Assembly: GCA_027003115.1 (NCBI GenBank)
Contig: JALWYS010000148.1
Span: 1 to 44,720 of the forward strand
Source: Deltaproteobacteria bacterium
GTDB taxonomy: Bacteria > Desulfobacterota > Dissulfuribacteria > Dissulfuribacterales > QOAL01
Direction of reading: 5' to 3'
DNA length: 44,720 nt
A program made the translations under genes and the position numbers. This document shows, one piece after another, positions 12,430 through 34,349 of the stretch (positions are counted from its first letter, which is position 1; each line of letters opens with the position of its first letter). The notes under the pieces were generated by a model that had not been told where the DNA came from, searched no databases, and saw only the letters and a program-made list of their open reading frames with translations.

Positions 12430-12436
12430 GGCCCGT

Positions 12437-12706: not shown

Positions 12707-12717
12707 CTCATACCTCC

Positions 12718-13464: not shown

Positions 13465-13784
13465 GAGGCCTCCATCTTCTGGGCCTTTTCTACCTCCCTT
13501 GAAAGCACCTGATTGAATCCTTCAAGGTTTTCACCCTTCATGGAACCGAGAAGGGTGATGCCCTGTTCTGTTGAACCTATGAGAAAATAACTTCCTGCAA
13601 CACGGACAAGGGAAATATGGCGTTTTGGAAGAATGGCCCTATTCTCAATCACCTCTATAAGCCCCTTGCTGGCACCTTGGGCCACAAGGCCAAACCTTCT
13701 GAGTATGAACGCAACCAGGAACATGAGCCCGAGTATCAATGCCAGGGCTCCTGCCATTTTCACTATTAGCTCAAAGACGTCCAT
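13461..13784 (-). CDS. fliO: Flagellar protein FliO/FliZ
   Basis: One TM plus the LVRV....FLIG.TE..ITLL pattern. Sits between fliN and fliP. Confidence 0.88.
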   Translation of the reverse strand: MDVFELIVKMAGALALILGLMFLVAFILRRFGLVAQGASKGLIEVIENRAILPKRHISLVRVAGSYFLIGSTEQGITLLGSMKGENLEGFNQVLSREVEKAQKMEAS

Positions 13785-13789
13785 GAAAC

Positions 13790-14440: not shown

Positions 14441-14458
14441 AGTGTGCCCCTGACTTCT

Positions 14459-15442
14459 TTATTCTTCTAGTAGTACCTTTTCTATCTTAAGGGCCTTCTG
14501 ACCCCGGTATATACCTGGCTGCCCCAGGAACTTGGGCTGATCTTTTATGAGGGCAGTCAGAAGATCATCCACCCTGGTGTCCAGCTGTATTATGTCTCCC
14601 ACCTCAAGGTCGAGGATGTCTGTACCTGTAAGTTCTGCGGTGCCAAGCGGTACATCCACCCTCACGGGTATATCCAGCACATTTTTTAGCATTGCCTGTC
14701 TCCAGGCTGGATCCTCTGTTTCATCGATCTGGAACGACTTTTGGAGTTTGCTTTTTATGGGCTGTATGAGGCTCACGGGAAGGCATATATATATGACGCC
14801 ACTCATCTCCTCTATATCCAGTTGGAACTTGCACACGATCACCGCATCCTCTTCCTGTATTATCTTTGCAAATTGTGGGTTTATCTCGCTTCTAACGTAC
14901 TGGATCTCCACTGGATGAATGGACGACCAGGCACGGCTCCAGTCTTTCAAAATGGAGTTGACTATGCGTTTTATAAGCCTTTGCTCTATGGAGGTAAATT
15001 CCCTTCCCTCTATGCGACTCTGTCCTATGGACGTTGAACCAAGGAATATTTCAACAATGCAAAATACAAGCTGCGAATCCATGACCAGCATGGCGTGCCC
15101 GCGAAAGGGCTCCATTTTTATTATGTGAAGACTGCTTGGGACTGGCACCTTTTTGAGAAAATCCTTGAACAGGATAACCTCTATGGGAACCACTGAACTG
15201 TCGACCATCACCCGGAGGATGGAAGAAAGGGTGCTCCTGAGGCCACGGTTAAAGTGGTCATTTATGATGGCAAAACCTGGAAACTTCACCCTTGACATAG
15301 CCGTGGCATTGGCAAAGTCGTAGGGTATTACATCACCTTCCTGCTCCCCGGATTGTGATTGTTCCTCAGATTCTGGCTCAACGGCCTCATCCAGCCCCCC
15401 GAGAAGGGCATCTATTTCATCCTGACTTAATACCTGGGCCAT
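14459..15442 (-). CDS. fliM: Flagellar motor switch protein FliM
   Basis: LSQDEIDALL CheY-binding peptide, REFT.IE, RSE.NPQF and a C-terminal SpoA domain. Confidence 0.97.
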   Translation of the reverse strand: MAQVLSQDEIDALLGGLDEAVEPESEEQSQSGEQEGDVIPYDFANATAMSRVKFPGFAIINDHFNRGLRSTLSSILRVMVDSSVVPIEVILFKDFLKKVPVPSSLHIIKMEPFRGHAMLVMDSQLVFCIVEIFLGSTSIGQSRIEGREFTSIEQRLIKRIVNSILKDWSRAWSSIHPVEIQYVRSEINPQFAKIIQEEDAVIVCKFQLDIEEMSGVIYICLPVSLIQPIKSKLQKSFQIDETEDPAWRQAMLKNVLDIPVRVDVPLGTAELTGTDILDLEVGDIIQLDTRVDDLLTALIKDQPKFLGQPGIYRGQKALKIEKVLLEE

Positions 15443-15454
15443 TAACTTACCCCC

Positions 15455-15982
15455 TTACTGGACAACAAACTGGCTGAAATAGACGTCCTTGAGCTTTCCA
15501 GGACCGATTATCCTGCTCACCCTGGACATTATCTCGTCCTTGAGTCGCACCTTTCCTTCAATGGTTATTACGTCCTCAAGGGTCTTGCTGCTAAGGAGTA
15601 AAAGTATGTCGTTTCTGATCTTTGGGAGAAACTTCTCCACCAGCCCCTTGGCATCATCATCTTTGACCTCTAAAGATATGGTCGCCTTCAAGAAATGACG
15701 GGCCTTGGGATCCGCAAGATTCACCAAAAACGGCTTTAAATCTACAACAACGCCTATACTATCAGGGGAAGGGGCAACAATTTCCTGAGGAGTCTCATCC
15801 TTTTTGATCTCCTTTGCCACCTCCTCATCACTGGGTGCAGAATAGAGAAAGAAAAAGGCCCCTGCACCTCCGATGATGATTAGAACCAAGAGGGCGATGA
15901 TTATGAGAAGGAGCTTTGAACCGCCTTTCTTTTCCTTCTTTTCCTTTTCCTCTGATTTTTCCTTTTTTTCTTCCTTTGCCAT
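15455..15982 (-). CDS. fliL: Flagellar basal-body protein FliL
   Basis: Basic N-terminus, TM, F.VNLAD..., P.IRN.I..LLSSK, VYFSQFVVQ. GGAG RBS before ATG 15982. Confidence 0.95.
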   Translation of the reverse strand: MAKEEKKEKSEEKEKKEKKGGSKLLLIIIALLVLIIIGGAGAFFFLYSAPSDEEVAKEIKKDETPQEIVAPSPDSIGVVVDLKPFLVNLADPKARHFLKATISLEVKDDDAKGLVEKFLPKIRNDILLLLSSKTLEDVITIEGKVRLKDEIMSRVSRIIGPGKLKDVYFSQFVVQ

Positions 15983-16025
15983 TGGGTGCTCCAAAATTTG
16001 TCATGATTTTGTCAGGACAAAAAAG

Positions 16026-16042
16026 AGCAACCGTCGTGCCAA
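16026..16042 (-). promoter_or_regulatory. Sigma-54 (RpoN) -24/-12 promoter of the fliL operon
   Basis: Minus strand TTGGCACG-ACGG-TTGCT, an exact TGGCACG-N4-TTGCW match about 45 bp upstream of the fliL ATG. Confidence 0.92.
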
Positions 16043-16137: not shown

Positions 16138-16153
16138 CGTCATATTTATGACG
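16138..16153. promoter_or_regulatory. Palindromic upstream activator sequence (FleQ-box-like GTCA-N6-TGAC)
   Basis: CGTCATA-TT-TATGACG, a perfect 7-bp inverted repeat about 130 bp upstream of the predicted sigma-54 start site. Confidence 0.6.
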
Positions 16154-20038: not shown

Positions 20039-21299
20039 GAGACCTCTTAAAAAGAGCTTTCAATTCGGCGTTTTTGAGCTTAAGCTCATAAAAAATGGCA
20101 TGAATCAAACACAACGAGATTTTATCACAAATTAGGGCATTGTATGCATGATTTTCATGTCATATCTAAGCTTATTTCCGTCTATTTCTGCCAGAAGGCG
20201 CACTACTCCTATGAAATCCTTTATCCGGTGGCCAGTGAACAGGCTCGTCGCAGGTTGTAAGCCATGGAAATAAGGAGAAGATGAACCTCGTTTCTAAAAA
20301 GCCCTATATATCTAGCCCGGGCATGGCCCCATTTGCTCTTTATTATGGCAAAGGGCCTTTCTACCTGGGCCCGTATCTTGGAAATCTCCTTGTTCCTTTT
20401 CTTGTCTTTCTCAGAAAGAGGTGCCCCTCTATAAGCCTTCTTCATAAGACCGTTCTTGATGCCCTTTGCTTCAAGCTCCTTGGCCCTATGTTTGTCATAA
20501 TATGCCTTGTCTGCATATACGGCCTTTTCATCCCCGCTAAGAAGCTCATTGAATATCTCATGGTCATTTACTCTTGCCTGGGTCATCTCAGCTTTTCTGA
20601 TTATGCCAGAGCCCTGGTCCACTCCAATATGGGCCTTGTAGCCATAGCAGTGCTTCTTATTCTTGCCTTTTCCCTTTGCTCCCCAGGAGGCCTCTGGGTC
20701 CCTGGGCTTCTTGTCTTTTCCAGGGGGTCTTGTGGCAGCAGGATAAAAGGTGGCATCAATCAGAGTGCCAGCCTTTACCACAAAACCCTTGTTCTCTATC
20801 TGTCTGTTGATTTCCTCAAAAAGCTCTTTTGCAAGATCACCAAGCTGTTTTCTGAAAAGGCAAATTGTGGTTTCATCAGGACCTGTTTGGGTAATCTCCA
20901 TATCTAGGAAGACCTTGAAAGAGATCCTGTCATTGACCTGGGCTTCTGCCTGGGGATCAGAGAGCCCGAACCACTGCTGGAGCAAGAGAATCTTGAACAT
21001 GAGGACCGGGTCATATGCAGGTCTTCCTGTATTGGAGGGATGGAGTCCTGCGAGCTTTTTACGAATTGGAGCCCAGTCGATGATGTCGTTGACCTTGTGG
21101 AGCCAATGGGCGGTGTTGATACAGTTCTTGACCTGGAATTGTGCAAATGATAACTGTTGGGTTTTCTTTCGTATCATTGCGATATCTCCTTGATTATGAA
21201 CTGTAGCTATTATAAAATATTTAGTAAAATTTGGCAATAGCTAGTAAATACTATACTGATTTAGTTTTTAAATGAGACAAAAAGTTTCTCAGAGGTCTC
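20039..21299 (-). mobile_element. IS5-family insertion sequence (IS1106-like ends), 1261 bp
   Basis: Terminal inverted repeats GAGACCTCTTAAAAA / GAGACCTCTGAGAAA (first 9 bp perfect), flanked by the direct repeat AAACA at 20034-20038 and 21300-21304. Confidence 0.93.
20221..21177 (-). CDS. IS5-family DDE transposase
   Basis: GRP.Y, LLQQWFGLSDP..E, PDETT, IDAT, YGYK.H, YADKAY, R..VE motifs. AGGAGA RBS before ATG 21177. Confidence 0.95.
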   Translation of the reverse strand: MIRKKTQQLSFAQFQVKNCINTAHWLHKVNDIIDWAPIRKKLAGLHPSNTGRPAYDPVLMFKILLLQQWFGLSDPQAEAQVNDRISFKVFLDMEITQTGPDETTICLFRKQLGDLAKELFEEINRQIENKGFVVKAGTLIDATFYPAATRPPGKDKKPRDPEASWGAKGKGKNKKHCYGYKAHIGVDQGSGIIRKAEMTQARVNDHEIFNELLSGDEKAVYADKAYYDKHRAKELEAKGIKNGLMKKAYRGAPLSEKDKKRNKEISKIRAQVERPFAIIKSKWGHARARYIGLFRNEVHLLLISMAYNLRRACSLATG

Positions 21300-21787: not shown

Positions 21788-24073
21788 TTACCAGATACCC
21801 CTCATTCCGAACTCTTTCCTGACCCTGTCTATTCGTCTTTCAAGGTCAACACGCCACTCAGCATGTATCCTGGCACTAGGTGGTGCAATGAGTTCCGGAA
21901 GCCCGTAAACCAGCCTGTCTGCCGCCTGGCTCGCCTCAATGACTGCCTCTATACTCCTTGCGCCAAACTTGTACTTTGCCACAAGAAGCCTCAGGAGGAG
22001 CCCAGATGTCTTTCTCGCAGCCTTTTTCCAGTGGGTCTCCATCTGGTGGGCAATTATGAAGGCCCTTTTAAGAAGTATTCGCTTTAGTCTTTCAAGTTCG
22101 GCGCCAGAGGCGGAATCCCTTAGTAGCTCTTCTGGAATGTCTATGCCATCGATATCGATTACAACCCTCAACCTGCTCATAAAATCGGGTATCTTAAGTG
22201 CCTTTATTTTCCTGAGTTCCTCATGGTCATCCGTATGAAGCAGGGCCTCCATGGCGCTATAGGAATCCTTCACCCCTCCTGCAAACACAAAGACACTTCG
22301 CCCAATGTAACGTGGTATGCCATCAACATAGGTAACACCGTCCTGCATGGATGGAAGAAAGTAGCGCAAGTAACCAAACTCGTTGTCATCGTAGCGACAG
22401 TCAAACTCATCCCAGAAGGCCACAGGCACCCTTCCCTTGGCAACACTTGCCCTCACAAGATCAATGGCAGAGTTAATCTCCTCAGGACCGGAAAATTGGG
22501 TGAGATTGAACTCGAAAAACTCAAAGGGATTGGTATCGAAATTTTCCGCAATGACCTTTGCCACCTGTTCCACTGCAAAGGATTTGCCAGAACCAGGAGG
22601 GCCAAAAACACCTATGCACAAAGGACGCTTGCAGACCTCACGCATGACATAACTGTTCATTACACCCCTTAGGGTAACAACCGGTGCCATCTCAGCCGGG
22701 TCGGTGGTGCGAAGATGTCCAACATTGAACATCCTCAAATCCTTGAAGCCCTGTTTGCGGTTGACCTCCTCCTTTAGATTCTTGAGAACCTGTAGGATCA
22801 CAGAGATGTAGCCGAGATTGTCCACCTTGTCATCGATGTGGCAAGAACTCCGCTTCTCCACATTGGTAAAGAACTGGCGAAATGCCTCCTTTCTTTCTTC
22901 ATCCCAAGACTGGCAGGAAACCTTTTCCAGGATACGCTCCATCTCAAGGCTGTAGGGCGGAAGTTCAAAGAAGCACGGATCTGATTCCGTCTCCAGGAAG
23001 GAACACGGAACCCCTTTGGGATAGTTGGAAGAAAAGTCAAGGTCCGGAAACTCGAGGGCCCCTGAAAAGGCGTAGCCCTTTTGACGAAGGAGCTCCCAAT
23101 TCATCAGGACCCTCTTTGAAAAGTCAAAGAAGAAACTCCTTTCACTGGGAATCCTTGAAAGTCTCAAGGCATCTAAGGTAAGCATTGCCGTAACCAGTGT
23201 ATCGTAACATGGCACAGAGCCCCGCTGTCTGTTGGACCCCCTTTCAGGAAGGCTCGCCTCCTTGTGCCTGAACATCATGTGGCGTGGCCCCACGTATAAC
23301 AGGGCATTGGGAAATATCTCCACAAGGATGTGGCATTTGAACCTCATGGATGAAGGACGCCACAGCCCAACCTCGTCGGATTTGAGGGCCCTGATGCACA
23401 TTGCAACCAGGGACTCCCAGACCACCGCACTGTCCATCTCCATGCGCGTAGTCTCAAGGTCTGACAGGCGGCAAAAGAGCATGAACTTGTTTCCAAAGGC
23501 ATCTGCCCAGTCCTGCCAGTTGGCAGGCGTTATTCCAAGGGCCATGACCCAGGCATTTGGGTTCCTTTTCTTAAGCTCCTGGGCAATGCGCGGAGGATTG
23601 CCACCGTCATCCACTATGATGATCCCCGAATTGTCGCTCACCTTTTTCTGGTTTTCTCCATCCAGATCGACATGATCCGGTTGGCCAGGACGGCCGCCTG
23701 GAGGCAAAATCTGGCGCATCATGAACCAGCCGTGGCCAGGATCCTCAGTGGGCTCTCCCTTCTTGTAAAATATCTGGAATACGTCCCTGGGCTCCCCGTA
23801 GGATATCGTGCTTATCTTCGGGGCAAGTTCCGAGGGGGTGAGAAAGGAAGAAAGCCAAGTCAGGCACTCTTCCAGCCTGCCTTCCTCGGTTGTTATCTCT
23901 CCTGCCAGAAGCTCGATAAAATCCCCGGGATTGTAACCGTAGGCTGGAAGGCTGCCTTCGGCTATCATGCTTACTTCCTTTATGGGAAGATTGGTTATCT
24001 TTACATGGGAACCAAGCAAGAGAAGTCTGTGATCTGTCTTCACCTTGTCACCCCCGTTAAAGCCACTTACCAA
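21788..24073 (-). CDS. Uncharacterised AAA+ ATPase (ClpA/B-D2-like module) with large N-terminal domain
   Basis: Walker A GPPGSGKS, FNLTQF, Walker B VAFWDEFD, MQDG, PDFMSRL, GARSIE. Start codon uncertain (TTG). Confidence 0.8.
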   Translation of the reverse strand: MVSGFNGGDKVKTDHRLLLLGSHVKITNLPIKEVSMIAEGSLPAYGYNPGDFIELLAGEITTEEGRLEECLTWLSSFLTPSELAPKISTISYGEPRDVFQIFYKKGEPTEDPGHGWFMMRQILPPGGRPGQPDHVDLDGENQKKVSDNSGIIIVDDGGNPPRIAQELKKRNPNAWVMALGITPANWQDWADAFGNKFMLFCRLSDLETTRMEMDSAVVWESLVAMCIRALKSDEVGLWRPSSMRFKCHILVEIFPNALLYVGPRHMMFRHKEASLPERGSNRQRGSVPCYDTLVTAMLTLDALRLSRIPSERSFFFDFSKRVLMNWELLRQKGYAFSGALEFPDLDFSSNYPKGVPCSFLETESDPCFFELPPYSLEMERILEKVSCQSWDEERKEAFRQFFTNVEKRSSCHIDDKVDNLGYISVILQVLKNLKEEVNRKQGFKDLRMFNVGHLRTTDPAEMAPVVTLRGVMNSYVMREVCKRPLCIGVFGPPGSGKSFAVEQVAKVIAENFDTNPFEFFEFNLTQFSGPEEINSAIDLVRASVAKGRVPVAFWDEFDCRYDDNEFGYLRYFLPSMQDGVTYVDGIPRYIGRSVFVFAGGVKDSYSAMEALLHTDDHEELRKIKALKIPDFMSRLRVVIDIDGIDIPEELLRDSASGAELERLKRILLKRAFIIAHQMETHWKKAARKTSGLLLRLLVAKYKFGARSIEAVIEASQAADRLVYGLPELIAPPSARIHAEWRVDLERRIDRVRKEFGMRGIW

Positions 24074-24124
24074 ATACGAAACAAGACTTTAAAGACTCCC
24101 TGAATGAAGCTGTCTTATTCGTCA

Positions 24125-25657
24125 TCAGTTCCACTGCCAAATTGGCCCTTGCGTCTGCGCTGGCCCATTTTCAGGGGCTTCCACTGAAGGGACCTCTATC
24201 TTTTTTTCTGTTACCTCCTTTGGGGAAGATGGTAGAGCCTGCGCGGGAACCGAGGCTGCTGGAAGTTGAGAACCTCCTTCTGCATGATGGCCCCTTTCCA
24301 TCTCAAGCTGTCTCCTTAGTGCCTCAATCTGTGCACCTGAATCAAAGGAGTGGACACCGCCTTCCACGGGCTTTTGTACCTCCTGGGCCATAACGTGCGG
24401 AGGCGTGGTTTTTACCACCAACTCTTCGTCAGAGTCACCCCAAGGCCAAAGCCTTGAAAGCCAGCCCTTTTCCTTCTTCCTCTCCACCTTGATGTTCTCT
24501 ATCTGTCCTAGAGCCTTTTCCAAAGGAACCGGCTCCGGGATGCTAAACTCCACTTCTGGCGGTGGAGGAACAGGAAGCTTTTCCTTGGAGCTCACCACCA
24601 CTGGCTCCTTGTCTTCCTTCTCCTTCTCAAGCCTTGTCTCCTTTGCCTGGGAGACGGTTGGCAACTGGTTCTCCTTTTCCTTACTGCCAAAGGGCCAAAG
24701 CCAAGAGTACCAGCTCCCCTTTTCCTTCTGTGCAGCCCCAGATGAAGGGGACGATCCTTCCTCAGTATCTCCCGCACTGGTCATTTGCGTTTCGTTTTTG
24801 ACAGACACTTTCTTTGGAGTTTCCACGGCATTTTCATCATCGTCAGGTTCATAGACATCTGGCAGTGGGAAAAAGGAATTGTCGTCCTCCTCCTCTGTTT
24901 TAACGGTTGCAGCCTTATTTACTGTATTGCCAGTCATTTCACCTTCTGGCACGTCATCACCTGCGTCATAAACGTCGGGCAAAGGCATGTAAGAGTCGTC
25001 CTCACCAGTTGCCAAAGGACGACTGCTGCCTGTTTGTTGTGCTTGCCTCTTCTGCTGCCTGATCTCACGTTCCTCGTCCTTTTCAAGTCTTTGGCGAACA
25101 AGGATGTCTGGATGAAGCCTCGCCATTGCAAATTCATCATTGGCCTCTATCTTTTTTGACCCAGGTCCTGCAAGGGTTGCAAAATTGGAAACTGTATCGG
25201 CAACAAGTACCTCGCCTGTATGCTTTATGGCATCAGCCATTTTTGCTGAAAGAAGACTGGTTTTTTGGGCAAGCATGCCAAGATCTGAGGCCACAAGGTC
25301 CCAGGTTTTTACTGTCTTGCCATTTTGGGAGGATTTGAGCCAAAAAGAGGCCCCAAAACCATTGCCCATTCGAGAAACCTTGCCAGAAAGTATAAAATCG
25401 GCAAGTTCCACCACACTTGTTTTTCCCTTTCCCACCAAAACCGTGTCTATGTCCTCAGACGAAAGCCTGGTAATGAGCATCTGGCTCAAGGCCTTTCCAA
25501 TATATGCCGGGGAAGAAGAATCACACTTGATGGGCTCTATGGCTACCAGAGGTTTTTTGGATCCTTGAGCATATGCTGCAACGACAAACAATAAGAGCAG
25601 AAAAATAAAAAAAGAAAAAAACAATGAATTCCAGCGAAAAAATACTTTTTTTACCAT
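24125..25657 (-). CDS. Exported hypothetical protein: signal peptide, small globular (TolB-N/CsgG-like) domain, long acidic low-complexity tail with short repeats
   Basis: Hydrophobic N-terminus ending AYA. Motifs PLPDVY and W.S.LWP each occur twice. Confidence 0.7.
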   Translation of the reverse strand: MVKKVFFRWNSLFFSFFIFLLLLFVVAAYAQGSKKPLVAIEPIKCDSSSPAYIGKALSQMLITRLSSEDIDTVLVGKGKTSVVELADFILSGKVSRMGNGFGASFWLKSSQNGKTVKTWDLVASDLGMLAQKTSLLSAKMADAIKHTGEVLVADTVSNFATLAGPGSKKIEANDEFAMARLHPDILVRQRLEKDEEREIRQQKRQAQQTGSSRPLATGEDDSYMPLPDVYDAGDDVPEGEMTGNTVNKAATVKTEEEDDNSFFPLPDVYEPDDDENAVETPKKVSVKNETQMTSAGDTEEGSSPSSGAAQKEKGSWYSWLWPFGSKEKENQLPTVSQAKETRLEKEKEDKEPVVVSSKEKLPVPPPPEVEFSIPEPVPLEKALGQIENIKVERKKEKGWLSRLWPWGDSDEELVVKTTPPHVMAQEVQKPVEGGVHSFDSGAQIEALRRQLEMERGHHAEGGSQLPAASVPAQALPSSPKEVTEKKIEVPSVEAPENGPAQTQGPIWQWN

Positions 25658-25660
25658 TTT

Positions 25661-27067
25661 TTAAGCTGCCTTCTTGGATTTTGGCATAAGACCCAATTTC
25701 TTCATTTTTTCAATGAGGGTAGTTCTGTTCATCTTAAGTAGTTTGGCGGCCCGGTTCTTTACGCCGTCTGTCCTTTCAAGGGCCATAAGTATGAGCCTTT
25801 TTTCAAGTTCAGAAACCGCCTGGCTAAGGCTTAACCCGTCTTCAGGAAATTCCAGATCTCCAGAAATTGCGCGCCCGGAAGCCCCAACTGTCTTTTCAAC
25901 TATCTGAAAGGGAAGGTCATCCTTGGTGATCATTTTGCCATTTGCAAGAATAACCATTCGCTCCATGATGTTTTCAAGCTCCCTGACGTTACCAGGCCAG
26001 TCATACCTGGTAAGGATGTCCAGGGCCTCATCCGTTATACCTTCTACACATCTCTTTTTACCACTACAGTACTTTTTGAGAAAGTGGTTGGCGAGAAGGG
26101 GTATGTCGCTCTTTCTCTCTCTTAGCGGTGGCACATGAATGGGTATGACGTTCAGCCTGTAAAAGAGATCTTCTCGGAATCTACCCTCCTTTACAGCTAT
26201 CTCAAGGTCCTGGTTCGTTGCGGAAACCACCCTTATATCCACTGATATGGTCTTTACACCACCCACCCTCTCGAATTTCCTCTCCTGAAGCACCCTGAGA
26301 AGCTTCACCTGCAGAGATGGGCTCATCTCCCCTATCTCGTCGAGAAATATGGTGCCCTTGTTGGCAAGCTCGAACCTGCCAATTCTTGTTTTGATGGCGT
26401 GGGTAAAGGCCCCTTTTTCATGGCCAAAGAGCTCGCTTTCCAGGAGTTCTTCCGGAATGGCTGCACAGTTGACAGGTATGAAGGGACCATCCTTCCTGTC
26501 ACTGGCGTAGTGAATCGCATGGGCAATGAGTTCCTTGCCCGTACCGCTTTCACCAGTGATAAGAACGGTGCTGTCGGTGTCGGCAACCTTTTCCACCAGC
26601 CCAAAGACCTCTTGCATGGCCTTGCTGTTGCCAACTATGTTTTCAAAACCATACCTGGTCTTAAGTTCCTTCTTTAGGCTCTTGTTCTCCCTTTTTAGAT
26701 TTCTGAGCTCAAGGGCCTTATCAATTAGAATCGTTACTTCATCCGGCTTAATGGGCTTACAAAGATAATCGTATGCCCCCATTTTCAGGGCCTCTACAGC
26801 ACCCTGTATGGACCCAAAACCGGTAATGATTATGCATATTGTTTCAGGGGAGTGCTGCGTAACATAACGGAGCACATCCATGCCCGTCTTTCTGGGCATG
26901 CTAAGATCTGTTAGCACTATGTCAAAAAAACGGTTGTCCAGAATCTCTATGGCCTCCTGGCCATCACTGGCACTTTCAACAGAAAAGCCCTTGGCCCGGA
27001 GCACCTCTGACATGGTAAAACGTATGTCAGGGGAGTCATCAACGACCAAAATACACTCGTTTCTCAT
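25661..27067 (-). CDS. Sigma-54-dependent response regulator (REC-AAA-HTH), FleQ/FlrA-like HTH
   Basis: VVDD..TDLSMP..KP receiver, [40 protein letters not shown]. Confidence 0.93.
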
Positions 27068-27186
27068 CTTTATTCCTCTCCCTGTTCTCCTCTGCCTCCG
27101 TGAAGGCCCTATGAAAAAGCAGCCTATAAGATACCCATTTCTTCAAATTGTTGATAATTTCAGGTTAATAAACAGGTAGATAGGTG

Positions 27187-28698
27187 TCAAACCTTTTGTG
27201 CCATTTTTTTGACGGAGAACCTTGTAGGAAAAGGCGTCCCAGATAGATAGCTGTTAAGGCCTTGATAACCAAGGTCAAGGCCCGTATGGGTTTTTAAAAA
27301 AGAGACAAGGTCCAGCCTGTTTCCATGAAAAGACCACTTCTTGAGGAGACCGAATGCATCAGCCTTTAAAAACCACCCGTTGCCAAACTCTTTCCTTAAA
27401 AGATCTCTCAGCATCCATGCCCCTAAAAAGGCCTGGAAGTAGTCAAGACTATAAAGATCTGGCATGAGATCAAAGTAGTATGTCTCGGCATGGTACCTGA
27501 AACCGGTCTGTTCCTTCATGACCTTTGCATATCTTTTCTGGCTGGCTTCAGATCCTTCATGAAAAGAAAAATTTTCATATTCTATGAGACTTTTTGCACC
27601 GTATCTTCTGGCTAGGGTTAAAAACTTGACAGATTGAAGCGTGTTCAAAAGCCCCGCCTGTTCATCATCAAGCCCCATGACTCTTACGAGAAATTCCTGA
27701 TCCATGGAAATGAGCTGAAACAAAAAGGCAAAGGTTTCACCAAGAGCAAAGTCCATGAAAAAATCCTTTAAGGCAACATCCATCTTTGCGTCGTTGTTCA
27801 AAAAGAAAAAGGCGTGACCAAGCTCATGGAAGAGTGCCTCCAGATCTATCCAACCACTAAGGCTGCCTGTTATCACATGAATCTCACCAGGAATCTGAAC
27901 TGGAAGACAGCATGACTGCCCCCTGGCCCCTTGACCCATGTGTAGTTTAAGGGCCTTAGAGTCTTTCAAAATCGGTCCGAAAAACCCCATCACCTTCTCT
28001 GTGCCTTTGTCCGCCTTCCAGGACAGGGGATAAAGATGGTCAAGATAACGAAGGCCGAGGAGATAGATGGCATCAAACCGACTCCTTTCTTCTGGTTCAA
28101 CAGATTCCTCTAGCATGTAAAACCATGTATCCACAAGCTCCTGGTAGACCCTGGATGTCTCGGAAAGAAAATCCCTGGAAAGCCGTATCAGCCTTTCAAG
28201 CCTGTCTCTCCCCTTCTTGTGGGCCAAAAACTCGATATAGCCCTGATAGTCAAGGTCTTCGGATACAGTCTTAAAGGTCTTGTTCCATGTTGCCTGGCTA
28301 AAGGGGGACAAAAACCTGCACAGGGATCTTGCCTCCCTTTCAAGTGTGTCTCTAAATGTCTTTTTATGCTGCTCCTGGCACCAATATATTATGTTTGAAA
28401 ACTGGATATCTTCTCCGTTAACCTGTGCCTTTGCACCACTCATCCAGTTGTTAAAGACCTGTTGAAGAGGCTCAACCTGGTTGCGAATATAAAGATCGCA
28501 GGCCTGGAAATATACATTTTTGTGTATGGTCCCCTTCTCAACCAACCTCCTTATCTCCTTTACATGATCGAGGCTGATGAAAGGTATCGTCTTTTCAAGA
28601 CCTTTCATGTCAGGAGCACGCCCAAGATAGTAAAGGAGATCCCTTTTCCTGTTTAAGACCACCTGGTCAAGGATTAACTTTCTAAGATCCTTATGCAT
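27187..28698 (-). CDS. Hypothetical gluzincin (M3-like) metallopeptidase-fold protein
   Basis: FHELGH motif followed by a distal Glu (ALGETFA). Confidence 0.65.
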   Translation of the reverse strand: MHKDLRKLILDQVVLNRKRDLLYYLGRAPDMKGLEKTIPFISLDHVKEIRRLVEKGTIHKNVYFQACDLYIRNQVEPLQQVFNNWMSGAKAQVNGEDIQFSNIIYWCQEQHKKTFRDTLEREARSLCRFLSPFSQATWNKTFKTVSEDLDYQGYIEFLAHKKGRDRLERLIRLSRDFLSETSRVYQELVDTWFYMLEESVEPEERSRFDAIYLLGLRYLDHLYPLSWKADKGTEKVMGFFGPILKDSKALKLHMGQGARGQSCCLPVQIPGEIHVITGSLSGWIDLEALFHELGHAFFFLNNDAKMDVALKDFFMDFALGETFAFLFQLISMDQEFLVRVMGLDDEQAGLLNTLQSVKFLTLARRYGAKSLIEYENFSFHEGSEASQKRYAKVMKEQTGFRYHAETYYFDLMPDLYSLDYFQAFLGAWMLRDLLRKEFGNGWFLKADAFGLLKKWSFHGNRLDLVSFLKTHTGLDLGYQGLNSYLSGTPFPTRFSVKKMAQKV

Positions 28699-28710
28699 GG
28701 GGAAGTGGTT

Positions 28711-29271
28711 TTAAAAAAGATTCTTCTTTAGAAGAAAGTTGCAAACACCTGATGCGATTTTGGAATAGCCAGACTCGTTTGGGTGAAGTCCGTCTGGAAG
28801 AAAGTCCCCTCCCCTTTTTGAAAGGCCTTCAAATATGTTTGGGTAAAGGGGTATGTTGCATTTTTCTGAAAGGCGTCTGTAAAGTTTTATCCATTCTGGC
28901 ACCCCTGGGTAATCCATGTTGAAACCTAAAAGGACTGGCCTGTGACCCGTTGAATGAATGTGCCCGATTATCTTTTCAAGATTTGTTTCACATGCCTTGG
29001 CGGGGATTGCCATAAAAAAGTCATTTATGCCAAACTCAATCAGCACCAGCACCTGCTCATCCGTTGAAAGGTGCTCATTAAGCTCACCAAGTCTTTTGAG
29101 AGCGTCATAGGAGGTATCACCAGAAACACCCAAATTTACACAGTTTACACCCAAAAGCCTTGACAAAAGAGTTGGGTAGGATGCCTCCCTGGAGACCATG
29201 TAACCCTCTGTAATACTGTCTCCAAAACATACCATTTTCACGTAAAGGCGCTCCTTGGCCATTTTTTTCAA
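28711..29271 (-). CDS. SGNH/GDSL esterase (TesA/arylesterase-like)
   Basis: FGDSIT, GVSGDT, G.ND and DGLHPN blocks. Start is TTG 29271 or ATG 29262. Confidence 0.9.
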   Translation of the reverse strand: MKKMAKERLYVKMVCFGDSITEGYMVSREASYPTLLSRLLGVNCVNLGVSGDTSYDALKRLGELNEHLSTDEQVLVLIEFGINDFFMAIPAKACETNLEKIIGHIHSTGHRPVLLGFNMDYPGVPEWIKLYRRLSEKCNIPLYPNIFEGLSKRGGDFLPDGLHPNESGYSKIASGVCNFLLKKNLF

Positions 29272-30044
29272 GAAGCGTTTCTAAGTTTGACCACAACGCC
29301 ATCTCTGACTATTTCCATGTCAGACCCCGCCTTTTTAAGGCTTGTCTTTGCCACTGCCATTGCCAGGAGAAGTGGCTTGAGGGTGAGGGAGACTAATTCC
29401 TTCGCCAGCTCGTTTTCATTGGAGATGGATGAAATCTTTTCAAGTTCTTCCACAGGATAGCTGATGCCCTTTGGATAGAAACCCACAGACACTAGATTTT
29501 CATCGCTGGTTGAAAGGGCTATTTCAAGGACCGGCTCCGGTGTTTCCCTGAGAAGCTCTATTGTTGAAAAAAGGATGCCATCGAAACTGTCCTTGACATG
29601 CTGTTCGTTAAGTATCAGCACCGGCGAAGTCTCAGGGAATGAAAGGTCAAGGCCTACCTTGTGCTTAAAAAAGAGATCGGATTTCCAGAATTCGATTGTT
29701 TCTGAAAGAAGCTGGGTAACCATTACGGGCCCTTCTTCCTCCTGTTGCTCTTCATCATAGACCCTGGAACCAACCAGCTTCACCATGTCATTGATCCTGG
29801 AGACAATGTCCTCAAGCTGCTCAAGCCTGTTGGCAGCCTGGCTGATGCCTGAAGTGATCTGGCTGTTTTCGCATTTAAGACCGGAAAGATGCCCAAGGTC
29901 CATTGCCAGAAGCTCCATGTGCATGGACAGCACCTGGAGAGGACTGTTCATGTTGTGTACTATTCCCTTGGCATTTCTCCCAATAAGGCTGTCCCTGAAA
30001 TACCTTAGAAGATTCGCGACAGCCACATCCTTGTCAAAAGACAT
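29268..30044 (-). CDS. Histidine-kinase-like protein with H-box but degenerate ATPase domain (putative phosphotransferase/pseudokinase)
   Basis: GIVHNMNSPLQ H-box. N, G1 and G2 boxes are not recognisable. AGGAGG RBS before ATG 30044. Confidence 0.7.
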   Translation of the reverse strand: MSFDKDVAVANLLRYFRDSLIGRNAKGIVHNMNSPLQVLSMHMELLAMDLGHLSGLKCENSQITSGISQAANRLEQLEDIVSRINDMVKLVGSRVYDEEQQEEEGPVMVTQLLSETIEFWKSDLFFKHKVGLDLSFPETSPVLILNEQHVKDSFDGILFSTIELLRETPEPVLEIALSTSDENLVSVGFYPKGISYPVEELEKISSISNENELAKELVSLTLKPLLLAMAVAKTSLKKAGSDMEIVRDGVVVKLRNAS

Positions 30045-30257
30045 ATCTTTCACCCTCCTGATAACCCACCGGTGTAGGAAAGGCCATGCCCAGGAGCCGC
30101 AGGCTTTTAGAAAAAGTCCTGGCATGGTTAACTGTCAAATATATTTATTTTTTGGCTTTCTACAACAAAATTTCAGAAAAAATTGGTAAAGGTGCAAAAG
30201 AGAGGGAAATGTTTTGAAAAAGTTTTGGAACTAAACAGGGAGGGGGCTTTTTACGGG

Positions 30258-31862
30258 TCATTCATCCTGACCCTTTCTCCTCTTCTCATCCATTATGGAA
30301 GAAAAGGCCTCTACTACATCAGGGTCAAACTGGCTTCCTGAATTTCTTATTATTTCTTTGCAGGCGAACTCCACTGACATGGCCTTTCTGTATGGACGTC
30401 TTGACGTAATGGCATCATACGTGTCTGCAACCGCCAGTATCCTGCTCAACCTGGGAATCTCATCCCCTTTGAGTCCATCAGGGTAACCCTTACCATCCCA
30501 TCTTTCGTGATGGTGCCTGATGATGGCTGTTTCCAGCTGGAGAAGACCCAGATGCCCAACGATCTCCGCACCAATGACCGGGTGGGTCTTTATGATCTCG
30601 TACTCCTCATCCGTAAGCCTGCCTGGCTTCATGAGTATCTGGTCCCTGATCCCGATTTTTCCGATATCGTGAAGATGGCCTGCAAATGTCAGGGACTCTA
30701 TCTCTTCCTCTGAACAGTTCATCTTCTTTGCCACCTCAACCGCCCACTGGGTTACCCTTTCTGAATGGAGCTTTGTATAAGGATCCTTGGCTTCAAGGCT
30801 TCGAACAAGGGCACGAAGGGTGGCGTGCAGATTCATAAAAAGGCTGTCATAAAGGAGGATGTTCTCCACTGTAAGGCTTGCCCTTTCAGACAGTATATGA
30901 AGAAGAAAAAGATACTCGTGGGCGACTTCAGCCTCAATATCTTGTGAAGATATCCCTAATACACCAAGTATCTCCTCCCTGATCTTGAAGGGCACCATGA
31001 GATAGCACCCATCCGAACCATGGGTGCTTCCTGACTGGGGTTCATGTTTGATGGGATTTCTGCCAAGAACAGGGATGCCATCCTTCATGACCTTAACTAC
31101 AGGATGGCGCGCATCCATAACAGGTATCTCTGATAGCCCTCTGTCCACGTCGCCGTGAGATGCAACCATCACAAGGCTGTCTGCCTCTTCCTCTTTAATC
31201 CATAACATGGCCATGGATGAGTCAAGCAGGCTCGCCCCAAGATCAACAAGGGTTTGATAGAGCTCGCTGGTGTTCTTGGTCTTGGCAAGGGTCTCGTTTA
31301 TGGTAAAAAGAATACTCTGCTCCCGCATTTTCTTCTCAAGCTTCCTGTTCATCTGTTCAAGAAGCTTTTTTACCTTTACCTCTTCTGTTAGAAATGCATT
31401 TTCAAGCAGGATGCTTCTTTCCTTTACGAGACGCTTAAGTGCCACCTGGAACTGCTCAAACTTGAACGGCTTTGAAAGGAAATCCGATGCTCCGCTCCTC
31501 ATGGCCTTTATAATCACGTCCATGGAAGGGTCACCGGTTATAATGGCTGCAACCACGGTCCTGTCCCTTTCCTTCAGCCTCTTGACAAACTCGATTCCGC
31601 TCATGCCAGGCATATTGATATCAACAAGGACAACGTCCACATCCACTGTCTGGTCCAATACGTTAAAGGCATCAAAGGCATTGGAGGCCTTAAAGACCTC
31701 GTAACACTTCTGAAACTTGAGAAAGGACTCGAGCATGTCGATGATCTGGGGATCGTCGTCAACGATCAACACGCGCCAGACCTTGTCCTTACTGATGGGG
31801 CTGTCTGAATGGGAGCTAGGAGTAGATGCAGAAGATTGCATTGGCTGGTCAAATCTGGTCAA
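30258..31862 (-). CDS. Response regulator c-di-GMP phosphodiesterase (REC-GAF-HD-GYP)
   Basis: LIVDDD/VDINMP receiver, GAF-like middle, HSERV, HDIGK, HHHERWDGKGYP, ADTYDA..S.RPY. Alternative start ATG 31841. Confidence 0.92.
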   Translation of the reverse strand: MTRFDQPMQSSASTPSSHSDSPISKDKVWRVLIVDDDPQIIDMLESFLKFQKCYEVFKASNAFDAFNVLDQTVDVDVVLVDINMPGMSGIEFVKRLKERDRTVVAAIITGDPSMDVIIKAMRSGASDFLSKPFKFEQFQVALKRLVKERSILLENAFLTEEVKVKKLLEQMNRKLEKKMREQSILFTINETLAKTKNTSELYQTLVDLGASLLDSSMAMLWIKEEEADSLVMVASHGDVDRGLSEIPVMDARHPVVKVMKDGIPVLGRNPIKHEPQSGSTHGSDGCYLMVPFKIREEILGVLGISSQDIEAEVAHEYLFLLHILSERASLTVENILLYDSLFMNLHATLRALVRSLEAKDPYTKLHSERVTQWAVEVAKKMNCSEEEIESLTFAGHLHDIGKIGIRDQILMKPGRLTDEEYEIIKTHPVIGAEIVGHLGLLQLETAIIRHHHERWDGKGYPDGLKGDEIPRLSRILAVADTYDAITSRRPYRKAMSVEFACKEIIRNSGSQFDPDVVEAFSSIMDEKRRKGQDE

Positions 31863-32514
31863 AGAGTTTCTTTTTCAAGGTTAGAAACTCTTTCTCTGTA
31901 ATGGCACCCTGGGCCTTGAGTTTTGCCAAACGCTCAAGCTGGGTGAGAACCTCTTCCCTGTCAGGACCGCCTTTATGGTGTTGAAGGATATAGGGCGAAA
32001 ACCATTCGGGTCCAAAAAGGGCCTTCTGGCTTGCCTCATCTGGGGTGGCCTTGGTGCTTGCATCCTTGGTATCACCGTCACCCTTTCTGCATGCCTTCAC
32101 AAATTCAATTAACCTCTGGTTTTCCTGCTGAAGCCTTATTTTCTCACAGGCGTTATCAACGCTGATCTTGAGCTCCTCAAGACGAAAGGGCTTTCTAAGA
32201 TAGTCGTAGGCGCCCTCTTTTACTGCCTGAATGGCTGTTTCAAGGGAAGCATAACCTGTTATTATGATAACAATGATATCTGGGTGAAGTTTCTTGGCCT
32301 GATGCAGCACCTCCATCCCGTCCACTTCTGGCATCATGAGATCCGTAATAAGGAGATCAAAGTGTCCTTCCTTCAACTTGCCAACTGCCTCAAGACCGTT
32401 GTGGACAAGGACTATCTCCCTGTCTTCCCGGTCGAGCAATTCGGTAAGAAGGTCACCGATATTTTTTTCGTCTTCGGCTATGAGTACTCTAAGGGGGGTC
32501 TGCTGGTCTGCCAT
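31849..32514 (-). CDS. Response regulator receiver protein with C-terminal SHOCT domain
   Basis: IAEDE, TDLMMP, KPF receiver motifs, and C-terminal LERLAKLKAQGAITEKEF..LKKKL. Confidence 0.85.
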   Translation of the reverse strand: MADQQTPLRVLIAEDEKNIGDLLTELLDREDREIVLVHNGLEAVGKLKEGHFDLLITDLMMPEVDGMEVLHQAKKLHPDIIVIIITGYASLETAIQAVKEGAYDYLRKPFRLEELKISVDNACEKIRLQQENQRLIEFVKACRKGDGDTKDASTKATPDEASQKALFGPEWFSPYILQHHKGGPDREEVLTQLERLAKLKAQGAITEKEFLTLKKKLFDQI

Positions 32515-32630
32515 TTTATAAAGCCCACTTGTGAAAGCAATTAAGTATGATTAACGTTTGGGACCGCAAGAAATATACCCAAAAACTCTTATTATTCACA
32601 ATAATTTAACTTTTTTTCTTTATCGGAGCT

Positions 32631-34349
32631 ATGACAAATAACTTGAAGCCACAAAAAAACAATGAAAAGAAAACAGATTTGGAGACCCAAATCAATACCC
32701 TGGATCTATCAGATCAACTGAATTTGGTTTTGACAGCACCCTGGGAGAAACGATTTGAGATCATAACGTCTTCTGAACGGGCGGGTGAGATCGTTGCCAA
32801 CATGCCTGTTGAAGAGCTTTTCTGGACCATAAAGGCGACAGGCATTGAAGACTCCGCCATTATCCTGTCACTTGCAACGGCCGAACAGCTCCAGTTCATC
32901 TTTGACCTTGACTGGTGGCAAAAGGACCGTTTGAGGCCAGAAAAAATAGCCGCCTGGCTCCTGGTCATGTTTGAGCTTTCTGTGCAGGTGCTCAAAAACT
33001 GGCTCAAATGGATACTTAACCGCGATCCTTGGCTTTTGCCTGCCATACTCAACGAGTTTATTACTGTGGTAAAAAGACCGGATGACATGGATATCCAGGA
33101 GGCAAAGGACAGATTGCCAGCCTTCACCCTGGATAACGTATATTTCATGGATTTTAAGAAAAAGAAACTTGCCCCCCTTTTCATAAGACTTATAACGGAC
33201 ATGGTTGAAATGGATGCAGGTAAATACAGGGACATCCTTGAAACCATGCTGTGGGAGACGCCGAGCCACAACCTGGAGACCGCTTACAGGCTAAGATGCG
33301 GGCGCATTGGTGACTTTGGCATACCAGACTACTATCAGTCCCTTGACATCTACGTGCCCATTTCAGAAGAGGAGATGCACGTAATCGAGCCGGAAAACTC
33401 TCCCTTTGCAAGGCTTCCAGTAAACTATGACATGCCCGCCTTTGTGCCGACCCTGTATGTGTCCGGCTATCCAGCCCTTGAAGATGCAGTGCGAATACTG
33501 GCAGGAAACCCTGTAATGGAAAGGATAGTGCGGGAGACAACCGGCGTTGCTAACAAGGTTTTGATGGCAGACCTTGTTGACCTGGATGATCCTGAAAGGC
33601 TGAAAATGGCTCTGGAAAAGGCCTTTTCCCTTATCAACCTGGGAATGGAGAAGCTTTCAGAATCATCGGGAAAGTCTCCTGAGGAAATACTCAAAAGCCA
33701 CTACTTGGAAGAGATAACAAGGTTTGCTTCAGGTCTTCTTCTGCCCTTTGGAGATAAGGCACGAAAAATCATGTCTGAGCCGTTTTTCAAAATATTACCT
33801 CATAGGCTCAAGGATGTGGTTGAGGCGGCAAGCCTTCGCCCGTCCATGCTCTTGGACGTTGGCACAGGCCTGTCAGAGAACGTAAAACACCTTAATGAGT
33901 TGGAAAAACTTGAATTTCTTCTATCCAAGGCCTCATCATGGAGCAAGGTGATCCCGTTTATTGAGCCATCCTTCGAGAAGTGGCCCTCCCAAATTAAATG
34001 GCAAGAGACCAACTTTCTTGCACCTGAGGAATTTTCAGTGGATAGCGCCCTTGCAACTGCTGTTTCCAACCTCATTATCAAGGCAATCTTCCACGTTTCC
34101 CCTCTGGACAGGGAGGAATTAGAAGCACTTTATGAAAGGCTTTCTGAAATGGGAAAAGAAGAGGTCTTTGGGCTTCTTAAAGAGCTCTTAGACCCCCTTT
34201 GCACAGGAGATGATTCTGGGTTGACTGAAAAGGAGCTCAACGAAACTATCCTTCCATATCTTGTGGAGGTATTCTCCGAGCTAGTCACACAAGGCAAAAG
34301 GGTCATTAATGAACCCCGGTACATCAAAAACATACTGGTAAAAGTCTAG
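32631..34349 (+). CDS. Conserved hypothetical protein (DUF6178-like)
   Basis: 572-aa ORF with EQLQF..DLD.W..D, FTLD..Y and E.AY..R..R..D.G.P motifs. GGAG RBS. Confidence 0.7.
   Translation: MTNNLKPQKNNEKKTDLETQINTLDLSDQLNLVLTAPWEKRFEIITSSERAGEIVANMPVEELFWTIKATGIEDSAIILSLATAEQLQFIFDLDWWQKDRLRPEKIAAWLLVMFELSVQVLKNWLKWILNRDPWLLPAILNEFITVVKRPDDMDIQEAKDRLPAFTLDNVYFMDFKKKKLAPLFIRLITDMVEMDAGKYRDILETMLWETPSHNLETAYRLRCGRIGDFGIPDYYQSLDIYVPISEEEMHVIEPENSPFARLPVNYDMPAFVPTLYVSGYPALEDAVRILAGNPVMERIVRETTGVANKVLMADLVDLDDPERLKMALEKAFSLINLGMEKLSESSGKSPEEILKSHYLEEITRFASGLLLPFGDKARKIMSEPFFKILPHRLKDVVEAASLRPSMLLDVGTGLSENVKHLNELEKLEFLLSKASSWSKVIPFIEPSFEKWPSQIKWQETNFLAPEEFSVDSALATAVSNLIIKAIFHVSPLDREELEALYERLSEMGKEEVFGLLKELLDPLCTGDDSGLTEKELNETILPYLVEVFSELVTQGKRVINEPRYIKNILVKV

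Follow-up and report, generated by a model that had tools for sequence, protein, structure and literature searches.

Gene content of the locus

The window, by which we mean the whole stretch of 44,720 nucleotides that was analysed, is an entire contig (C148; JALWYS010000148.1) of a metagenome bin labelled Deltaproteobacteria bacterium (GCA_027003115.1), a bin of 2.15 Mb in 207 contigs that is about 90% complete. This study concerns a string of co-oriented genes on its minus strand, from 32514 down to 21261, which encodes two response regulators, a kinase-like protein that keeps the phospho-acceptor histidine of histidine kinases (the H-box protein) and from which the ATP-binding boxes are gone, and a sigma-54 activator with a receiver domain of its own. 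With REC standing for a receiver domain, the order is REC-SHOCT, REC-GAF-HD-GYP, H-box protein, GDSL hydrolase, HExxH protein, activator, a 510-aa protein, a 761-aa AAA-like protein and PAP2; below PAP2 the same strand continues with an insertion sequence (IS) transposase, three envelope-sugar genes and then fliL-fliM-fliN-fliP-fliR-flhB-flhA-flhF-flhG-fliA (5494-15994; flagellar genes assigned by Pfam). An earlier note, made from the sequence alone, had described a signalling block here, which agrees with the gene content, although the block is not purely a signalling one, since the GDSL hydrolase and the HExxH protein lie between the H-box gene and the activator. The loci closest to the window are labelled as metagenome-assembled genomes of Thermodesulfobacteriota or 'Deltaproteobacteria', and at the DNA level the window recurs in sequencing runs of hydrothermal-vent metagenomes, with no RNA run listed among them. 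The principal features are as follows.

31849 to 32514, minus strand: REC-SHOCT response regulator, 221 aa (Pfam Response_reg 94.9 bits, SHOCT 28.8 bits)
30258 to 31862, minus strand: REC-GAF-HD-GYP response regulator, 534 aa (Pfam HD_5 139.7 bits, Response_reg 93 bits, GAF_3 29.7 bits)
29268 to 30044, minus strand: pseudo-histidine-kinase, 258 aa, in a frame open to 30125; a dimerization and histidine phosphotransfer (DHp) hairpin followed by an alpha/beta domain like the catalytic and ATP-binding (CA) domain
25661 to 27067, minus strand: sigma-54 activator, 468 aa (Pfam Response_reg, Sigma54_activat, AAA_lid_14, HTH_8)
16139 to 16152, no strand assigned: GTCA-N6-TGAC palindrome, reading cGTCATAAATATGACg on the minus strand; a candidate enhancer, 111 bp upstream of the promoter in the next line
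16026 to 16041, minus strand: sigma-54 promoter TGGCACGACGGTTGCT, upstream of fliL (15455-15994) and the fliM-to-fliA string

In an alignment, all three receivers of the window show a complete phospho-acceptor pocket, with the acidic pair, the phosphorylatable aspartate, the threonine (IIITG) and the lysine (KPF/KPI), as the earlier note had claimed for the aspartate motifs. The REC-SHOCT protein is laid out as receiver, linker and C-terminal SHOCT motif, and in relatives the genes of its orthologs, 33-83% identical, precede the H-box gene. In the available text of the paper that defined SHOCT, oligomerization or binding is proposed as the function of the motif, and oligomerization was not confirmed (PMC3581485).

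The translation of the second regulator contains HLHDIGK, HHERWDGKGYPDGL and RRPYRK, which are of the HD, HHE..DG.GYP and RxxK types, and it scores 243.9 bits against the NCBIfam model for NosR-family regulators with phosphodiesterase activity on cyclic di-GMP (c-di-GMP), under the cut-off of 400. The gene product is probably a phosphorylation-controlled c-di-GMP phosphodiesterase of the RpfG/RpfX type, whose layout of receiver, central GAF and HD-GYP with catalytic motifs it repeats (10.1101/2021.11.05.467447). For several members of the RpfG family, the portion of that paper available describes phosphodiesterase activity as dependent on receiver phosphorylation. The window regulator, whose activity is predicted here, differs from RpfG/RpfX in that its partner is a dead kinase and not a hybrid kinase of the RpfC type.

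None of the 37 open reading frames (ORFs) of the window that were scanned with Pfam matches HATPase_c, and of the 43 HATPase_c frames that a six-frame search found across the genome, none is on C148. The earlier statement that no real kinase is present thus stands for the window and fails for the genome, where 13 of the 43 frames are hybrid, i.e. also carry a receiver. Histidine phosphotransfer (Hpt) domains gave just three matches genome-wide, two of them within hybrid kinases, and there are 18 strong sigma-54 activators, which together with the kinase frames make a heavy signalling load for a genome of 2.15 Mb.

A kinase homolog without an ATP-binding site

The start of the H-box gene is probably at 30044, giving 258 aa, because most homologs are 252-265 aa long and begin at an internal methionine. 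Over the whole open frame (29268-30125), Pfam finds HisKA only below threshold (about 22 bits where 26.9 is required) and, at E <= 0.01, no HATPase_c. The phospho-acceptor is His30, in GIVHNMNSPLQVLSM; an FFKHKV motif is present, and there is no N, G1, F or G2 box. When six key residues for ATP binding (the N-box Asn, the G1 Asp with two Gly, and two G2 Gly) are scored against intact kinases from syntenic positions, the window protein retains one of the six, reading S at the N box, PKGIS at G1 and LLAM at G2, with no F box. The ATPase domain is therefore dead, as had been suspected from the sequence, and we infer that the 258-aa protein cannot form phosphohistidine from ATP.

What remains is a histidine kinase in overall fold. 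An AlphaFold2 model of the H-box protein, made with 20 sequences, has a mean predicted local distance difference test (pLDDT) of 86.3 and a predicted TM-score (pTM) of 0.81, with helices at 5-55 and 60-92. Foldseek places it with 334 PDB matches at E <= 0.001, of which HK853 (4jav, 3dge), WalK, YycG, DivL and RetS come first (E ~1e-10 to 1e-8), so that both the DHp and the CA parts of the kinase fold are present in the model.

By sequence, the protein belongs to a family of its own kind. A word-indexed search returned 27 relatives, mostly of 252-265 aa, and no precomputed Pfam domain is attached to any of them; an exhaustive HMMER search of 1.84 billion representatives returned 280 matches at E <= 0.001, 43 at <= 1e-10 and 6 at <= 1e-30, and among 173 homologs about 90 are short proteins without G1 and G2 boxes. 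Against PDB sequences the family profile finds just the CA domains of true kinases (e.g. YycG at 8.6e-7 and FixL at 6e-6), and no ChpT or Spo0B chain is among its 30 matches at E <= 1. The comparison with ChpT drawn in the earlier note does not extend to homology: the two share no detectable kinship beyond the kinase superfamily, and the relatives described below point to another origin.

The H-box histidine is invariant in 81 of 81 rows of an alignment made of the window protein and one protein from each of 80 related loci. The motifs HN.N.P and FFKH are common to the intact relatives as well, and they are therefore traits of the family and not signs of decay. For the same reason we rejected the Asn at H+1 as a mark of a DHp domain that does not autophosphorylate, HN.N.P being found also in intact relatives. 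Both domains of the dead kinase are under purifying selection: in the best-sampled subgroup (91 pairs), the pairwise ratio of nonsynonymous to synonymous substitution rates (dN/dS) comes to 0.23 in the DHp part and 0.31 in the CA-like part.

A conserved cassette and the loss of its ATP-binding motifs

A scan of one genome per species for relatives of the H-box protein gave 171 confirmed stretches, and we used the best 80 as loci, in which ORFs were called and compared with the window proteins. REC-SHOCT, REC-GAF-HD-GYP and a short, sensor-less DHp-CA protein form an old conserved cassette of Thermodesulfobacteriota, in an order that is seen in dozens of genomes. The closest 14 loci repeat the full order from RecO through PAP2, with the two enzymes present or missing depending on the locus; more distant loci read DUF6178 and then REC-SHOCT, REC-GAF-HD-GYP and the H-box gene; and in the short forms furthest from the window these two regulators come with a gene of about 270 aa that has a normal HATPase_c domain. 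To this last, intact group belong the cultured Desulfacinum infernum DSM 9756, Syntrophobacteraceae and Desulfarculales. Where a degenerate locus extends at least 4.5 kb upstream, REC-SHOCT is present in 20 of 32 cases and the HD-GYP regulator in 16 of 32; at loci with an intact short kinase the corresponding counts are 14/15 and 15/15. The synteny of these three genes, which the earlier note had put forward as a check, is thus borne out. The dead kinase is a degenerate ortholog of the cassette's own kinase.

The same loci differ in the state of the ATP site. Of the 81 aligned rows, 43 (the window and 42 loci) keep one or two of the six key residues and 36 keep five or six, and two rows from Desulfonatronovibrio keep three or four. 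The HATPase_c cut-off of Pfam, applied to 66 proteins from this position in the gene order, is reached by 20 of 21 motif-intact short proteins, by none of the 43 degenerate ones and by neither of the two intermediates. In a quick maximum-likelihood tree the 43 degenerate rows are one side of a single branch, with a support of 99 in the Shimodaira-Hasegawa-like approximate likelihood-ratio test (SH-aLRT), and FastTree recovers the same split from 140 DHp-only columns (support 0.897). A single loss therefore suffices, and the ATP-binding motifs were apparently lost once in the clade of the window.

The stretch in which kinases dock their receivers retains the character of the cassette. Counting from the histidine on, 15 of 17 residues of the window protein are identical to the intact cassette kinase of locus L044, and 8 of 17 in the same stretch are identical to a long, activator-paired kinase of locus L057.

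Two of the intact cassettes (L074, from Desulfacinum infernum DSM 9756 with its intact kinase at 8004-8828, and L039) are flanked by PilZ, Che, FliD and FliS genes, which we count toward a link of the cassette with motility, and in both a PilZ-domain gene stands between the HD-GYP regulator and the intact short kinase (L074 7386-8000, L039 7346-7936). There is no PilZ gene in the 213-bp gap that the window has at that position. In three Dissulfuribacterales-like loci (L048, L049 and L054; 7278-12977) a degenerate H-box protein of 227 aa comes right after REC-SHOCT, and it is followed by a partner-switching set of PAS-STAS, STAS, two HATPase_c_2 proteins (one fused to SpoIIE) and a kinase.

The sigma-54 activator and the fliL promoter

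The activator consists of a receiver with a complete pocket, an AAA+ domain with a GAFTHA loop and a Fis-type helix-turn-helix. It falls below every equivalog cut-off of NCBIfam: its best match is AtoC (549 bits, cut-off 714), and FlbD and FlgR score 365 and 355 bits with cut-offs of 750. Its loop is rare, for among 14 activator loops caught in the genome 11 are GAFTGA, two are GAFTDA and the window's alone is GAFTHA. All 13 activator orthologs of at least 75% identity keep GAFTHA, as do those in genomes G007, G011, G012 and G013. In Desulfacinum (G014) the best match to the activator has 58% identity and GAFTGA, and lies 18 kb from fliM on the same contig.

In 13 of 13 close relatives with sufficient downstream DNA the activator gene comes after the H-box gene, directly in three of them (L002, L007 and L012) and with just passenger enzymes in between in the other 10. 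The gene fliM is about 9 kb downstream of the activator in the window and in G001, G002 and G003, on the other side of the activator in G005, and on another contig in G004.

Before fliL, the site at 16026-16041 agrees with the sigma-54 consensus at 15/15, as no other site of the window does; all weaker matches, the best of which score 13.5, are inside ORFs. Promoter and palindrome are kept together before fliL in eight relatives (G001-G005, G011, G012 and G013), at a spacing of 108-111 bp when the window is included, and the arrangement is absent before fliL in Desulfacinum (G014). The genome contains 28 copies of GTCA-N6-TGAC, 26 of them inside long open frames, and just the fliL copy precedes a sigma-54 promoter; the second non-coding copy, at C122:1467, lies between convergent genes and was set aside. 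We also note a repeat, TGACAA-N5-TGACAA (TGACAAAATCATGACAA in the window), in the leader of fliL (15996-16025, minus strand), which is present in six of six aligned genomes.

A literature search for 'GAFTHA' found a single paper, on the sigma-54 regulome of Desulfovibrio vulgaris (PMC4641369). In the parts of that source available, DVU2894 is an activator without an N-terminal domain and with a GAFTHA loop, for which the site yGTCA-N6-TGACr was predicted, and it is treated as an FlrA/FleQ-like regulator predicted to control fliL (PMC4641369). According to the supplement, DVU0047-DVU0043 is a fliL-to-fliQ operon that has a DVU2894 site at -381 (CGTCATTGCCCTGACA) and, at -186, a sigma-54 promoter (PMC4641369). 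The window activator resembles DVU2894 in its rare loop and in having the same predicted type of site upstream of the sigma-54 promoter of a fliL-first operon (PMC4641369), and it differs in carrying a complete receiver pocket where DVU2894 has no N-terminal domain; the likeness is one of loop and predicted site.

Because the window repeats the site and promoter arrangement of DVU2894, we consider that its activator probably fires the fliL-to-fliA operon. The link between activator and fliL operon made in the earlier note has gained by these observations, namely the sole perfect sigma-54 promoter, the palindrome 111 bp away and the loop that is unique in the genome. On the whole the earlier interpretation is supported in part, the cassette and this link having proved firmer than anticipated. 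We had first called the activator 'not FleQ-like' and favoured for fliL a second activator, on contig C176 (see below), and revised this on the evidence of GAFTHA and the palindrome.

Neighbouring genes

The remaining genes around the cassette and the activator are the following.

32631 to 34349, plus strand: DUF6178 protein, 572 aa (Pfam DUF6178 388 bits), divergent from REC-SHOCT
28711 to 29271, minus strand: GDSL/SGNH hydrolase, 186 aa (Pfam Lipase_GDSL_2 85.6 bits), its start overlapping the stop of the pseudo-kinase gene
27187 to 28698, minus strand: HExxH protein (HELGH), 503 aa, with an atlas feature match of 0.98 to clusters named peptidase family M3, taken as a lead
24125 to 25657, minus strand: 510-aa protein with a hydrophobic, signal-like N-terminus and an acidic low-complexity region, starting 3 bp after the activator gene

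The two enzymes are variable passengers. The GDSL hydrolase is found in L001, L003, L005 and L006 and is absent in L002, L007, L008 and L012; the HExxH gene is absent in L002, L006, L007 and L012. The 503-aa protein has no Pfam, NCBIfam or PDB sequence match, and from its HELGH motif and the atlas lead it may be M3-like, possibly a divergent oligoendopeptidase. The 510-aa gene follows the activator in L001-L014 and in G011, and its product has no family match in Pfam or NCBIfam. The 761-aa protein (21788-24073, minus strand) has only weak AAA/MoxR matches and no family assignment, and at 84-94% identity across relatives its gene is conserved better than any other in the block. Between PAP2 and the envelope-sugar genes lies a DDE transposase (DDE_Tnp_1 with DUF772; 20221-21237, minus strand), and the distance from activator to fliM is about 1 kb longer in the window than in G001-G003, which would fit a recent insertion of the transposase.

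Of 32 degenerate loci with sufficient flanking DNA, 26 have DUF6178 upstream of the H-box gene, as against none of 15 intact loci, and in a lineage where neither receiver was found DUF6178 directly adjoins the H-box gene (56-589 bp). The family is present elsewhere, in unrelated contexts, in five of five intact-kinase genomes, and on this ground we downgraded the adjacency as a sign of a functional link. An AlphaFold2 model of the protein is all-helical (pLDDT 82.7), with no Foldseek match in the PDB at E <= 0.001 and no PDB match by sequence. A literature search by the name DUF6178 found no paper that mentions it, and in the protein atlas it forms its own family, with a weak lead to AtcB at 0.82-0.86.

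Scans of 24000-32700 for sigma-70 promoters (7 against 7.9 expected) and for terminators (16 against 11.0 expected) were both at chance and are uninformative on operon structure.

A proposed role for the dead kinase

We propose that the locus is a motility-linked signalling island built around a kinase without a catalytic ATP site, an explanation to which, taken in full, we give about an even chance. Phosphoryl groups would come from a kinase encoded elsewhere in the genome, one of the 43 HATPase_c frames, of which 13 are hybrid and only two have an HPt of their own, and the dead kinase would act through its DHp domain on the neighbouring receivers. Its most likely role would be that of a histidine phosphotransfer node, passing phosphate from a phosphorylated receiver to the histidine and on to another receiver as in Spo0B, ChpT and PhyT, and/or that of a phosphatase. 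By analogy with the RpfG family, receiver phosphorylation would tune the hydrolysis of c-di-GMP by the HD-GYP regulator. The GAFTHA activator, its receiver phosphorylated, would assemble at the GTCA-N6-TGAC palindrome and open the fliL promoter, the firing of which would turn on the export gate, FlhF/FlhG and sigma-28. A phosphodonor upstream of these steps is plausibly encoded in the genome; the adjacent REC-SHOCT protein, the hybrid frames and the three Hpt matches are possible donors, and none of them is tied to the dead kinase. A tentative extension, which we hold to be rather doubtful, is the branch proposed in the earlier note, by which the dead kinase would serve the receiver of the activator too and the whole would work as one branched switch.

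A number of observations weigh against this proposal. The first group concerns the distribution of the genes. Five SEEP-SRB2-like, non-flagellated genomes (0/5 with a match to the FlhA family) retain the dead kinase, beside DUF6178, and a full-length match to REC-SHOCT or REC-GAF-HD-GYP is found in none of the five. A dead kinase that is kept where the cassette receivers are not found must therefore have some function independent of them, and not solely one in a motility relay. These FlhA-less relatives without full-length receiver matches (5/5) were at the same time counted toward a link of the receivers with motility: taken at face value, and provisionally, the two receivers travel with flagella and the dead kinase does not. 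Every relative except one is a metagenome bin, so that gene absences are provisional, and the tree behind the single loss is a quick search in which several rows have long branches.

The second group concerns the activator. Of 28 degenerate loci that extend far enough downstream, 13 have it next to the H-box gene; these are the 13 close relatives already described, and outside this closest clade the count is 0/15, so that the synteny expected for the activator extends only to near relatives. Genome G007, one of the five non-flagellated genomes and with no match to FliM or FlhA, retains a 71%-identical GAFTHA activator, and its role is therefore not solely flagellar. Searched against the PDB, the activator scores 326 bits with FleQ AAA+-HTH, 323 with ZraR, 303 with the AAA+ domain of NtrC, 300 with that of FleQ alone and 287 with FlrA, values that do not separate FleQ from NtrC or ZraR as its nearest solved relative. 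FleQ and FlrA have a receiver-like N-terminal domain without the phospho-aspartate, and the window activator is unlike them in this respect, having DD, D, T and K in its pocket. A second activator, of 479 aa and with a GAFTGA loop, is encoded on C176 (L086 6626-8065, minus strand) directly upstream of flgB-flgC-fliE-fliF-fliG-fliH-fliI; it overlaps the start of the flgB string, and its receiver pocket is lost, reading GG, F, A and P where a complete pocket has DD, D, T and K. By the classical definition the resemblance to FleQ or FlbD lies with this protein, not with the activator of the window, and the fliL promoter could be its target instead. At C176:32290, near the start of a tetratricopeptide repeat (TPR) gene upstream of the C176 activator, there is a strict match to the sigma-54 promoter. 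The site and regulon of DVU2894, on which we drew for the window activator, are themselves computational predictions.

Finally, the invariant histidine would also be compatible with a purely structural or binding role, and the relay chemistry at the locus is a proposal made by analogy with the systems discussed below.

Alternative explanations

An explanation that shares all the support of the one preferred here, and that we regard as possible though unlikely, is in essence the full model of the earlier note, a branched relay like that of ChpT. A hybrid kinase encoded elsewhere would phosphorylate the dead kinase, from which phosphate would go on to two receivers, those of the HD-GYP regulator and of the activator, while REC-SHOCT would be a further client or a sink, so that c-di-GMP would fall as fliL is switched on. 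It gains from the close relatives, in which the activator comes directly after the H-box gene or past passenger enzymes alone, from related long HN.N.P kinases that are directly followed by NtrC-type activators in Cloacimonadota (loci L057, L068, L071-L073, L075 and L080), and from the kinase frames of the genome, 13 of 43 being hybrid and just two of those having their own HPt. It suffers from the docking helix, which resembles that of the cassette kinases and not that of the activator-paired long kinases, from the confinement of the activator's adjacency to one sub-clade, and from the fact that no upstream hybrid kinase can be named. The boldest form of the idea would make the family a histidine hub that feeds an activator of the FlrA/FleQ class which, in contrast to FleQ, FlrA and DVU2894, is a true phospho-receiver, with flagellar firing and c-di-GMP hydrolysis both drawn from one phosphohistidine and with a second client in the non-flagellated relatives; we think it unlikely to be right.

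The five non-flagellated genomes bear on another explanation as well. In DivL, a kinase was repurposed to sense the phosphorylation state of a receiver, according to the accessible text of PMC4211667, and DivL and RetS are among the fold matches of the H-box protein, so that the dead kinase could likewise be a reader or scaffold without any phosphotransfer, which would bind, e.g., phosphorylated REC-SHOCT or DUF6178 and regulate another protein, using its histidine for binding. Its persistence beside DUF6178 where neither receiver is found full-length would suit such a role. We consider this explanation quite unlikely, for the histidine is kept in 43 of 43 degenerate rows, whereas DivL has lost it, and DUF6178 is a widespread single-copy family that occurs elsewhere in the intact-kinase genomes, so that its adjacency may be no more than local gene order.

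The DHp domains of HisKA kinases have phosphatase activity without ATP, and a dead kinase of this type might act solely as a brake that drains adjacent receivers phosphorylated by orphan kinases or by acetyl phosphate. Against such a role, the window protein has N at H+1 and S/G at H+4, positions at which E/D and T/N are usually tied to phosphatase activity; the motif is shared with its intact relatives. In favour of the role, a gene for a CheZ-like phosphatase follows the intact ortholog in L039. PhyT, too, was first proposed to be a phosphatase, and in that comparable case, as far as the available text of the study goes, tests found transfer and not phosphatase activity (PMC5898713). A brake with no other function is in our judgement very improbable.

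That the gene is a relic in decay, or that its product is still catalytic by way of an unconventional site for the nucleotide, is hardly credible: the CA-like domain does change at a somewhat higher rate than the DHp domain, but the gene is full length in 43 of 43 rows with dN/dS well under 1 and a confidently predicted fold, and all four nucleotide-binding boxes are missing, with no degenerate protein reaching the HATPase_c cut-off.

Comparison with known phosphotransferases

If the preferred explanation holds, with the dead kinase acting through its DHp domain on the neighbouring receivers, it would join a kind of protein of which Spo0B, ChpT and PhyT are the precedents. Spo0B is a dimeric, kinase-derived phosphotransferase between a single-domain receiver and an output regulator. 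It acts with Spo0F and Spo0A in Bacillus sporulation, and is named as a precedent for pseudo-kinase phosphotransferases in the available text of two studies (PMC5898713, PMC9981736). The window protein is of independent origin from it, Spo0B not being found by sequence search with the window family.

ChpT of the Caulobacter and Brucella pathway CckA-ChpT-CtrA/CpdR carries, as described in the accessible part of PMC9981736, a phosphorylatable histidine on a DHp-like domain together with a 'functionally degenerated' CA-like domain, and serves two receivers, one of them single-domain. The window protein has the same combination of a histidine on a DHp domain and a degenerate CA domain and would at most work like the pseudo-kinase phosphotransferases, without common descent: beyond the kinase superfamily it has no detectable sequence kinship to ChpT. 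It differs also in that intact orthologs survive in the same gene order in sister lineages, and in that its likely clients would be a c-di-GMP phosphodiesterase and perhaps a sigma-54 activator in place of CtrA and CpdR.

PhyT (PhyP) of Sphingomonas melonis is similar in being derived from a kinase, in its degenerate ATPase, in its position beside the output regulator and in having its kinases scattered over the genome; in the text available, it shuttles phosphate from the single-domain receiver SdrG to PhyR via a conserved histidine (PMC5898713). PhyT is membrane-anchored and of the HWE/HisKA_2 type with HRxxN, whereas the window protein is soluble, sensor-less and HisKA-like with HN.N.P, and the output of PhyT is control of the general stress sigma factor, where here it would be c-di-GMP and flagella.

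Implications

Pseudo-kinase phosphotransferases and FleQ-class activators are both known kinds of protein. What would be new here, on our reading of the sequences, is an independent family of pseudo-kinases with live orthologs in the same gene order, and a FleQ-class activator that retains a complete receiver. Kinases that have turned into a relay or a brake are known from few model systems, and in Spo0B, ChpT and PhyT the ancestral kinase is long gone, whereas in this case the dead and the live forms occur in one conserved cassette. As one of the live lineages is cultured (Desulfacinum infernum DSM 9756), side-by-side biochemistry of the two forms is therefore possible. The FleQ-class regulator of the operon for the flagellar export gate, FlhF/FlhG and sigma-28 appears to be phosphorylation-controlled, and it is encoded beside a probable c-di-GMP phosphodiesterase regulator. 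For vent relatives of sulfate reducers the locus suggests a concrete wiring, open to test, of the decision to swim or to live attached, in a phylum in which such control is almost unstudied.

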